From positions 1 through 35,227 of the forward strand of contig JAVKIH010000018.1 in the NCBI GenBank assembly GCA_031459625.1: DNA of 35,227 nucleotides. The letters run 5' to 3'. Position numbers: made by a program. This document shows positions 12,001-15,000 of this stretch, piece by piece. This DNA comes from Candidatus Geohabitans tengchongensis (GTDB lineage: Bacteria; Sysuimicrobiota; Sysuimicrobiia; Sysuimicrobiales; Humicultoraceae). Each line of letters opens with the position of its first letter. Positions within the stretch are counted from its first letter, which is position 1.

Positions 12001-15000
12001 ACGACGTAGCGGACGAAGCGCATGGCGTGCTCCCGCTCGTCGTCGGCCTGCTGGAAGAAGAAGCGGGCGAGCCGGGGCAGGTTCTCCGCCTCGAAGTAGG
12101 CCGCGATCGCCACGTACTGGAGCATCGCCCCGAACTCCCGCCCGATCTGCGCGTTGAGGGCGGCGTTCATCTCCCGGCTGATGAGCATCGTGGCCTCCAC
12201 CGTGCGACCTGGATCTGTGCCGCGTTCCATTATAGGCGCCGTGGGCACCGCTATCGGCGCCACCCCACCGCCCATACCGCCGCCGCCTGCACCCCCACCA
12301 GGGCCAGCCAGGCCGGCGGGTACCCCACGCGCTCGACCAGCCCGCCGAATGCCGGGGAGGCCAGCATCGTGAAGACGTAGAGGACCGTGAAGAGCACCCC
12401 CAGGGTGGCGGCCCGCGCCACGGCGGCGCGCTCGGCCACCGCGGTGAGCGCGAGCCCGTTCCACCCCAGGAACGTGAAGCCCCCGGCAAAGGCGAGCAGT
12501 GCGGCGGCAGCCGGGGAGAGGTGGCCGGACGCCCCCACCGCGGCCAGCGCCGCCGCCGCCCCGCCCCCGGCCAGCGCGGCCAGCGCCAGCGGCCGCCGCC
12601 GGTCGCCGCGGAAGTGCCAGTCGGAGAGCCACCCCCAGGCCAGACGGCCGGCCACGCCGCCCAGGTGCACCAGCAGGAGGAGGCGCGCGGCGGGGGCGAG
12701 CGCCCACCCGAAGCGGTCGACGGCGTACAGCGGCAGGTAGCCGGTCAGGCTGAACTGGCTCACCACCAGCAGGCACGCGGCCGCCGTCGTGGATCGCAGG
12801 ATCGGGTCGCCGGCGAACCGCCGGGCGGTGGCGCCCAGCCCTGTCGCGGGCGGCGGCGCGCCCGTCCCGGCCAGCCCGGGCACGACGAGCCAGGTCACCG
12901 CCGCGGCGACCAGCGCCGCCAGGCCCGAGGCCAGCAGCGCCGTGCGCCATCCCCACGCCTCGGCCAGCCACGGCAGGAGGAGCGCCCCGGCGAAGCCGCC
13001 GAGCGGCAGGCCGGCCTGACGGATCCCCATGGCCACCCCGCGCTCTTCCGCGGGGAACCAGCCCACCACGGCGTGGCTGCCGGTGATCTGGCTGGAGGGG
13101 AACCCCACGCCGGCTGCGGCCATCAGGAGCACCAGGGGAAGGAAACCCGGCGCCGCGGCAGCCAGGCCCACCACCACGCCCGTGGTTGCCGCGCCCAGGG
13201 CCATGACCCGCCGCTCGCCCAGACGGTCTGTGAGCGCGCCCGTGGGAAGGAATGTCAGCAGGGCGCCCAGGTCGAAGGCGGCCAGCAGGACCCCGACCTG
13301 GACCAGCGAGAGGCCGAAGTCGGCGCGGATGAAGCCGACGATGGCCGGGAGCCCGAACCGCACGACGGTCAGCCCGGCCTGGTGGACCGTGGCGGCCGCG
13401 AGCAGCCACCAGCGCGATCGGCTCAGGGGCGATCTTCCCGCTTCCGCAGGACCGTCAGGCAGAACGGGTCGCGTACGACGATGCGGGCGTCCGGGTCCCG
13501 CCGCAGCTCCCGGATCAGGCGCTCGCGCGTCTGCGGCGGGAGGTGGGCGGCCGTCCACTCCCGACGCAGAAACTCCTCCAGCGCGGCCAGGGAGCGGAAG
13601 ACGGCGGCCAGCATGAACTGCTCCCGCCCTGCGAAGCCGAAGAGCCCCTGCCGGATCACCCGCTCGACCGCCCGCTCGCTTGCGACATAGTCGGCGTGGT
13701 AGTCGCCACGCTCGTGGAGGTGGCCGACAGGGACCGCCCGGCCGGCCACGCGCACTTCGACGGGCAGGTACTTGGTCCGCCGGCCGCCCGGGTCACGGTC
13801 GGGCCGCAGGTCCAGGAGCCAGCCCTCAGGCTGCAGGACCCGGTGCGCCTCTGTCAGGGCATGGACCATGCCCCGGTGGGCGATGCATCAGAGCGACCAC
13901 GAGAAGAGGACGGCGGTGAAGGTGGCATCCGGGAAGGGGAGCGCCTCGGCGCGGCCCACCTCCAGCCGCACCCTGTCCTGCCACCGTCGCAGCCGTGTCC
14001 GGGCCCGGGCGACCTGGTCGGGATCGGGGTCGATACCCACCGCCGACCGGACGAGGGGGGCCAGGCGGCGAGTCAGCCGGCCGTCCCCGCACCCCACGTC
14101 GAGGAGGACGGACCCGCGCAACAGCGCATGCCGGAGGACCGTCCGCACCTCCCGCCGTTCCGGGTCGAGCCGCACGCCGCGCATGGCGTCACCTCCAGAA
14201 GAGAGTTCGGCTCGGGGAGATGGTGTCCTGTCAGCGCCAGGCTCCTCGCGTGCCCGGGCGCCCCGGGCGGCGTGTGACATGGGTCACAGGGCGCCTGCGG
14301 CCCGGCCCTGCTAGAGTGGAGCCGGATGGACCGCTTCGTGCGCGTCGCCACGCTGGAGGAGTTGCGCGCCGCCGGTCGCCTGGTCGTCCAGGCGGACGGG
14401 TACACGCTGGCCCTGTTCCTGGACGGCGACCAGGTCTTCGCTGTCGACAACCGCTGCCCCCACATGGGCTTTCCGCTCCACCGCGGGACGCTCAAGGACG
14501 GCATCCTCACCTGCCACTGGCACCACGCCCGCTTCGACCTGCACAGCGGCGGGACGTTCGACCGGTGGGCGGACGACGTACGCACCTTCCCCGTGGAGAT
14601 CCGCGACGGCGAGGTGTGGGTGGACGTCACGCCGCGGGGCGACGTGCGCGCCCACCAGCGGGAGCGCCTGTGCGAGGGGCTCGAGTACGACATCCCGCTC
14701 GTCATCGCCAAGGCGGTCGTCACCCTGCTGGAGACGGGCGACGACCCCGACGAGGCCTTCCGCATCGGGCTGGACTTCGGCGTGCGCCACCGCAAGGCGG
14801 GATGGGGGAGCGGCCTCACCATCCTCACCTGCCTGCGCAACCTGCTGCCGGTGCTGGACCGCGAGGACCGGGCGCGGGCCCTCTACCACGGCCTGGCCGC
14901 CGTGGCCGCCGACACCTTCGAGCAGGCGCCCCGCTTCGAGGTGCGGCCCCTGCCCACCCTGGGGGCCAGCCTGCGGGCGCTGAAGCAGTGGTACCGCCGC

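Follow-up and report, generated by a model that had tools for sequence, protein, structure and literature searches.

A predicted, apparently uncatalogued selenoprotein family of class I methyltransferases with a Sec/Cys pair in four states

Two short gene calls of Candidatus Geohabitans tengchongensis are, judged from sequence, in all probability one gene for a Sec-containing class I SAM-dependent methyltransferase, a member of a family that the catalogues apparently do not list. The predicted family is real and well supported, and it combines four Cys/Sec states (UU, UC, CU and CC) with a single fixed SECIS hairpin. Frame, conservation, covariation, Sec machinery and fold all point the same way, and we consider it very likely that the in-frame UGA directs Sec incorporation. 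Uncultured bacteria of soil, sediment and hot springs carry it widely, and as a matter of routine its genes are annotated in two pieces, one a truncated methyltransferase and the other a hypothetical protein; an HMM would mend many of these annotations.

The window, i.e. the whole stretch of 35,227 nucleotides analysed (contig JAVKIH010000018.1), carries the gene on its minus strand. The first-pass annotation had placed it correctly at 13423..14184 and had left the strand unstated. Translation from 14184 to 13423 with TGA read as U gives 253 residues followed by a TGA stop, and the predicted Sec site reads FSWSL-U99-C100-IAHRGMVHAL. Without read-through, the ORF list holds two plain frames, the first ending at 13888 and the second beginning at 13869. 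The features of the locus are the following:

13423..14184, minus strand: whole gene, predicted class I SAM-dependent methyltransferase selenoprotein (read-through translation, Pfam, AlphaFold2 model)
14191..14196, minus strand: Shine-Dalgarno-like GGAGGT, 6 nt upstream of the ATG at 14184 (sequence)
14077..14100, minus strand: SAM-binding motif I, codons 29-36, DVGCGDGR (family alignment)
13888..13890, minus strand: in-frame TGA, codon 99, predicted selenocysteine (TGA in relatives, Cys in full-length homologues)
13885..13887, minus strand: codon 100, TGC (Cys) in this gene, TGA in UU and CU relatives
13855..13875, minus strand: predicted SECIS hairpin, 9-bp stem with a conserved core of 7 bp, coding for R-G-M-V-H-A-L (fold, covariation)
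13864..13866, minus strand: apical loop GUC, G25-U26 counted from the first UGA and G22-U23 from the second
13867..13869, minus strand: internal ATG (Met106) within the hairpin stem, the gene callers' start for the presumed false second gene (ORF list)

The proposal of a single gene read through at codon 99 is upheld by this translation and by the protein domain it encodes. Indeed, the Pfam Methyltransf_25/11 domains run across the in-frame TGA with scores over cut-off, GC3 is 0.92 versus 0.90 on its two sides, and the codon-position GC profiles are alike. The AlphaFold2 model, for which 64 rows of the family were aligned, consists of a single class I methyltransferase domain (mean pLDDT 96.1, pTM 0.92). 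A Rossmann-like fold with a GxGxG motif I is found by Pfam, by the model and by fold searches, and G31, G33 and R36 of this motif are invariant in 64/64 aligned family members. In the model the U-C pair lies after strand beta-4, as first proposed, in the loop that joins strand 89-95 to helix 103-116, so that a stop at this site would cut the core of the domain. The search of the locus for promoter and terminator consensus sequences found none.

The host genome carries the machinery that the first-pass annotation ascribed to it. A genome search found tRNA-Sec on contig C23 with selA and selB, both over cut-off, as its neighbours, and a selD with one in-frame TGA, in ACAGU, which makes it a Sec-type selD; the selA, selB, selC and selD set looked for behind a bacterial selenoprotein is thus complete. 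Could the UGA instead be read as Cys or Trp, through a suppressor tRNA or a changed code? TGA is the commonest stop of the host (563/905 long coding-like frames), so the code is not reassigned, and the sole tRNA with a TCA anticodon found in the genome is tRNA-Sec. Two database entries do have WW at the site (P0048, P0140), which are probably best taken as gene calls made under another code, and we give a Cys or Trp reading very little credence. Co-occurrence with selA discriminates little: selA scores over cut-off in 23/25 family genomes of the order and in 14/14 tested elsewhere, against a high background of 76/94 genomes in the order and 134/186 elsewhere. The two family genomes in which a full selA match is missing are 68% and 72% complete.

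Within the order, an orthologue is present in 25/94 genomes, three of which have a second copy. The in-frame TGA claimed for all orthologues is there at codon 99 in each of the 25, as TGA-TGA in 23 and as TGA-TGY in 2. Profile searches recovered the family gene in 12/251 genomes from the class to which an Anaerolineae record belongs, in 6/201 from that of an Actinomycetes record, in 12/251 from the phylum to which a Dehalococcoidia record belongs (two of these had been counted before) and in 6/251 from that of a Vicinamibacterales record; as 9-13 candidates were scored per genome, these counts are lower bounds. With up to 9 candidates scored per genome, no family gene was found among 301 sampled archaeal genomes from the phylum that includes a Bathyarchaeota record. 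A peptide-pattern scan of the genome collection, with patterns from this gene's protein P0002, returned mostly generic methyltransferases and 1 family member in 80 loci.

In total 67/67 family genes, from 59 genomes in five sampled groups, have TGA at the two-codon site. Their states are UU in 54, UC in 11, CU in 2 and CC in 0, with TGA at codon 99 in 65/67 and at codon 100 in 56/67. This count takes in four frameshifted or shortened copies (L105, L250, L251, L286) and two UU genes from unpublished genomes (L091 and L101, from G016 and G024), on which no conclusion depends. CC forms, and most CU forms, came from searches beyond these genomes. To find Cys-first forms we scanned metagenomes for Cys in the first position with MVHAL downstream, so that loci were selected on part of the stem; the scan gave at least 120 loci, with 119 CU and 1 CC among those listed. 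Moreover, we searched 1.84 billion representatives with the profile and classified the best 150 matches at the Sec site: 53 stop at ..SL and 13 at ..SLC, another 9 stop at variants of the motif, 16 are C-terminal halves that start at Met106 or five codons earlier, 41 are full-length CC proteins, and the rest have other residues or are other fragments. The UGA therefore aligns with Cys in homologues, as expected of a selenoprotein; the CC state of the database proteins is deduced from protein sequence, and L175 is the CC gene seen at the DNA level. Two CC clusters (P0164, P0186) bear NCBI names from Candidatus Kariarchaeaceae. The family had been described as limited to UU and UC; both forms are confirmed, and the restriction falls with the CU loci and the CC proteins, whose existence strengthens the tandem reading.

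In a 130-row FastTree phylogeny the states are interleaved and at least 25 changes occur among five labels. The clade with all the Sec forms has an all-CC group as its sister, and UU is widespread inside this Sec clade, in which it may be ancestral, as far as so quick a tree can suggest. A sister group among the database matches has HE at the Sec site. Related sequences are not independent, and kinship inflates the counts of stem pairing and of double-sided changes given below.

These data also bear on whether the TGA is a true stop, in a split or decayed gene or between two coupled genes of which the second re-initiates at the hairpin ATG, TGA-TGA then being a double stop. Gene callers do split the gene, and nearly all members have an ATG 7 codons downstream; several members without this ATG nevertheless keep the hairpin. 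Furthermore, the break is TGA in every one of the 67 genes and never TAA or TAG, it lies in the core of the methyltransferase, after beta-4 and before beta-5, and uninterrupted CC homologues are interleaved with the broken genes on the tree. A true stop is, in our estimate, highly improbable, and we retain Sec read-through.

The hairpin of this gene has a 9-bp stem at +16..+36 (U of UGA being +1; window positions 13875-13855), a 3-nt GUC loop at +25..27 and a folding energy of -14.5 kcal/mol. Across the family the core stem pairs +18..24 with +28..34 around the loop at +25..27, and UU, UC and CU genes all have a 7-9 bp hairpin with a GU or GG loop in identical register. The bacterial SECIS model set out in the accessible part of PMC13188914 comprises a loop of 3-9 nt having G within its two leading positions, a stem of 4-16 bp, a spacing of 16-37 nt and an energy of at most -7.5 kcal/mol; with its 9 bp, 3-nt loop, spacing of 21 (and 18) nt and the energy given above, the hairpin conforms to the model in this form. 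The family spacings, 21 nt for the first UGA and 18 nt for the second, bracket the G23/U24 given for E. coli fdhF in the accessible part of PMC8659212. An Rfam scan returned no relevant match. Shuffled versions of the 71-nt region fold just as well (z -0.24), so the case for a SECIS rests on conservation and not on stability.

Three lines of evidence bear out the conserved SECIS-like hairpin of the earlier reading: its register, its frozen synonymous sites and its compensatory changes. In the 25 orthologues of the order the stem codons are fixed at GGC (25/25), CAT (24/24) and GCC (25/25), codons that the host otherwise uses at 49%, 15% and 51%, and the wobble position of the loop varies. Among 130 distinct windows, 85 of which were selected on part of the hairpin motif, 98.4% of 910 cells are paired and 19 cells at 4 pairs are changed on both sides; 0/500 shuffles reached either value. 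Controls with slid partners were 20-65% paired, and the slid control at -1, which equalled the real register in covariation score (0.095 vs 0.092), was yet only 38.8% paired. In the 65 genome-derived genes, a set unselected on the motif, pairs 19-33 to 23-29 are intact in 65/65, double changes included. The loop is GUN in 130/130 distinct windows, part of which were chosen on the Val codon, and GUN in 62 and GGY in 3 of the 65 genome-derived genes unselected on it.

The stem is also kept where the peptide shifts, from GMVHAL to DVVHVL, SVVNAL or SVGDTL, and L271, with the peptide ESVGDT, retains an 8-bp stem. GMVHAL itself is present in 63/80 Sec members (33/80 selected on MVHAL) versus 2/44 CC proteins, and the CC gene L175 has a mismatch in the stem and folds at -5.7 versus about -12 kcal/mol. 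The hairpin geometry occurs at 5/46,818 host TGA triplets, a figure of little weight as the geometry was defined from the feature itself.

The usual description of bacterial Sec insertion pairs a single UGA with a single hairpin at a fixed distance. In the present family, SelB bound to the in-frame hairpin would bring Sec-tRNA to the UGA, and a single register would serve a UGA 21 nt before the loop in UC genes, 18 nt before it in CU genes, and both in turn in UU genes. The tandem UGA of the first-pass annotation is found in relatives and not in this gene itself, which is UC. Since each UGA position is retained alone with the one hairpin, double decoding in UU genes is plausible; we consider it likely, the main argument being the identical register in UC, CU and UU. 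The register, which selection keeps fixed whether the first codon, the second or both are UGA, amounts to a natural experiment on SelB spacing and consecutive recoding, of relevance for engineering multi-Sec proteins, and if this reading is true the UU/UC/CU/CC series offers a ready test of SECIS spacing tolerance and of the catalytic contribution of the second selenium. One metatranscriptome run holds the stretch as an 11.8-kb contig with flat depth over genes on both strands, and hence says nothing on transcription; it has no base difference at the TGA, and the run may be the source of the DNA.

As the first-pass annotation held, the family appears to be absent from current catalogues. In NCBIfam (June 2026) no model comes near its cut-off for P0002, and the best E-value for the 64 members is 5e-22 among the matches listed (25 of 77 families). 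Among the 119 prokaryotic selenoprotein families in Table 1 of a 2026 review, none shows a UU motif and none is a methyltransferase with such a site. Neither the accessible main text of deep-Sep (PMC12013277), which does not mention methyltransferases, nor the accessible part of SelCysML (PMC13745706) describes such a family. Our literature search, whose scope lay outside supplements and Haft and Tolstoy 2025, returned no account of the family or of bacterial UU. According to the 2026 review, in its accessible part, Deng et al. 2026 report unvalidated candidates from 44,000 groundwater genomes, which could include it. Two NCBIfam names contain 'UU', which appears to denote Sec residues at separate sites, the review giving the motifs as UxxG and CxxU.

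The closest known systems differ from the family in definite ways. The Sec form of ArsM (NF008823) and the fusions NF041536, NF041537 and NF047649 are likewise selenoprotein forms with a class I SAM fold. ArsM, however, lacks a vicinal pair and has its Sec in a later GUxxGA motif that is absent from the new family, as is C/U in the ArsM GCxxGA (UxxG) motif. The ArsM models score 23-50 bits against cut-offs of 263-575, NF008823 in particular 22.9 bits against 263, and another UxxG-motif model gives 50.4 bits against 460, with 1.2e-15 as best E-value among the 64 members. MduS shares an N-terminal class I methyltransferase domain and has two Sec and a post-beta-4 Cys (LLCM), but both Sec lie in a C-terminal extension, at about residues 270 and 335 in L277, the one member over cut-off that was read, and P0002 scores 25.6 bits against the NF045649 cut-off of 380. 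The suspicion that the family is hidden under MduS can thus be dropped, the MduS Sec lying outside the methyltransferase domain in L277. A vicinal Cys-Sec dipeptide (CU/UC) also exists in SaoL, SaoB, SaoC, HgcA and MbdU, which have unrelated folds, one Sec per pair and no UU state listed; the authors tie such selenoproteins to metal or organometal handling in the accessible part of bioRxiv 10.1101/2022.07.06.499078. Consecutive Sec-Sec has been predicted in the algal PDI_e (GUGUU), as the accessible part of PMC7539508 reports. The novelty first claimed for consecutive UGA codons therefore fails in general and stands for the bacterial case with an in-frame SECIS. Indeed, PDI_e is a eukaryotic thioredoxin-fold protein whose 3'-UTR SECIS is free of a fixed-distance constraint, whereas in the new family a single in-frame hairpin has two distances to serve.

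What the pair does is best approached from its position. The post-beta-4 loop of class I enzymes borders the SAM methyl group, and the pair lies in the same loop as the SNC cysteine of ArsM. Cys or Sec is near-invariant at both pair positions of the 64-member alignment, and apart from these and motif I the family profile has no conserved Cys. Beside the SAM methyl, a vicinal selenol/thiol pair would bind a soft trivalent metalloid, with arsenite or an organoarsenite as first candidate and Sb, Te or Se species as possible others. The pair would present the metalloid for methyl transfer and cycle via a diselenide or selenenylsulfide, in a manner likened to ArsM, which uses dispersed cysteines. 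ArsD uses vicinal Cys pairs to bind As(III) (accessible part of PMC12607644), and CU motifs mark organometal-handling selenoproteins (accessible part of bioRxiv 10.1101/2022.07.06.499078). A trivalent metalloid is our best guess for the substrate, offered tentatively on mixed evidence. The catalogue examined lists no methyltransferase with vicinal Sec residues in its active site; such a pair may mark an unrecognised metalloid or sulfur methylation.

Two other substrate classes have to be weighed. An S/Se-methyltransferase acting on a thiol, sulfide or selenide, with a selenolate pair that activates the substrate or relays the methyl, is a less probable, though serious, option. A single Cys is common at the post-beta-4 position of generic class I methyltransferases (TVLC-type motifs) and presumably also in human and bacterial thiol methyltransferases. 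Some neighbours fit as well, namely MBL-rhodanese fusions (L102-L104), a DsrE (G465), an SQR-like gene (L164) and XdhC with yqeB (L235, L238); each of these is, however, limited to one or two lineages, and a pair kept in four states would suggest chelation or redox cycling over a single nucleophile. An ordinary small-molecule O/N-methyltransferase, in which UU or CC replaces a RebM-type His-His pair for acid-base chemistry and SAM contact, seems unlikely to us. It draws on the fold searches, whose nearest structures (YcgJ, TleD, RebM, AtmM and SpnF, Z about 18-22) are all tied and distant: YcgJ has Z 21.9 and rmsd 5.1 over 203 aligned residues, RebM Z 19.7 and rmsd 3.2 over 196. The pair aligns on ESL-HH of RebM (His140-His141 by residue count) and on ESL-CH of TleD, and we take His140 of RebM to have a catalytic role; the HE of the sister group fits the same option. 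RebM, AtmM, TleD and YcgJ, in which an H-H or C-H pair aligns with U-C, share about 18-24% identity at rmsd 3-5 A and are not selenoproteins. Against a general base, Cys or Sec is all but constant at both positions across the family, and two costly UGA codons would be hard to explain. The remaining probability goes to other SAM chemistry. Returning to the metalloid reading, it is possible, but doubtful, that this is the first bacterial family with an adjacent Sec pair under one in-frame SECIS and also a vicinal-diselenol metalloid methylation separate from ArsM.

No conserved gene neighbourhood had been noted, and a scan of 150 of the 163 neighbour ORFs picked at 60 loci, with 35 further ORFs, agrees: most loci share nothing, and we reject a universal neighbourhood. 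ArsM-type genes adjoin the family gene in G079, G247, G465, G1565 and one metagenome group, i.e. in five lineages; in a count that precedes the last two genome searches, 5/58 non-redundant locus clusters had one. G465 has, in order, MBL-fold, MFS, Cys-ArsM, DsrE, Sec-ArsM-like and then the family gene. This adjacency may reflect merely a clustering of selenoprotein genes. An obligate partnership with ArsM is rejected, ArsM-like genes being present in 12/25 family genomes versus 43/69 other genomes of the order. The neighbours of the present gene are an MFS transporter and a ferritin. The host genome also has a Sec-type ArsM-like gene, at another locus, with a similar stem and, by our own reading of the fold, its loop at +26.

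Two database entries (P0048 and P0140) have WW in place of the Cys/Sec pair of the new methyltransferase family, and these are probably TGA-TGA genes that were called under a genetic code reading TGA as Trp. Six other entries (P0172, P0173, P0234, P0247, P0252 and P0259) form a related group in which His-Glu replaces the pair.

As for the selenocysteine machinery, selA scored over the cut-off in 134 of the 186 genomes sampled from the Actinomycetota class of G094, another genome. In the genome of the window itself, we read a candidate hairpin after the UGA of selD; the computed fold picked a different stem.

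Contig C1, 5930: selD UGA, with a candidate 6-bp hairpin carrying a GCG loop at +31 (U of UGA as +1)

This loop would lie farther from the UGA than those of the methyltransferase genes (+22 to +26).

The methyltransferase gene of the window is flanked by the following genes.

14326-16575, + strand: three-domain gene (749 aa; N-terminal Rieske domain, DUF6244, C-terminal adenylate/guanylate cyclase domain), divergent from the methyltransferase gene
11679-13426, - strand: MFS transporter frame adjoining the methyltransferase stop codon, then a ferritin-like gene
11679-12170, - strand: the ferritin-like gene

The order of MFS frame then ferritin-like gene was not found among the scanned neighbours of the methyltransferase relatives.

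The genome of the window also carries a Sec-type gene resembling ArsM, the arsenite methyltransferase, with Gly at the position of the ArsM SNC cysteine. This NG change is also found in the Sec-ArsM-like genes that neighbour the new family, and G465, another genome, has two further methyltransferase copies, truncated and of the UC type, beside Sec-ArsM-like genes.

Contig C20, 4910-5741: Sec-type ArsM-like gene, motif AWAGUISGA
G465, locus L259, 896-5689, one strand: MBL-fold hydrolase, MFS, Cys-ArsM, DsrE, frameshifted Sec-ArsM-like gene, UU methyltransferase

One-TGA forms of the Sec-ArsM-like gene are common within the order.

Other relatives have different neighbours. In two loci from Anaerolineae-class genomes (L235 and L238), the methyltransferase gene is flanked by xdhC and a convergent yqeB, the latter scoring over the cut-off as a selenium-dependent molybdenum cofactor protein, and in three genomes of one genus (L102-L104) an MBL-rhodanese fusion lies directly 5′ of it. 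At two more loci (L089, 1-1458; L090, 2-1447), the gene downstream of the methyltransferase contains an intein with a LAGLIDADG domain.
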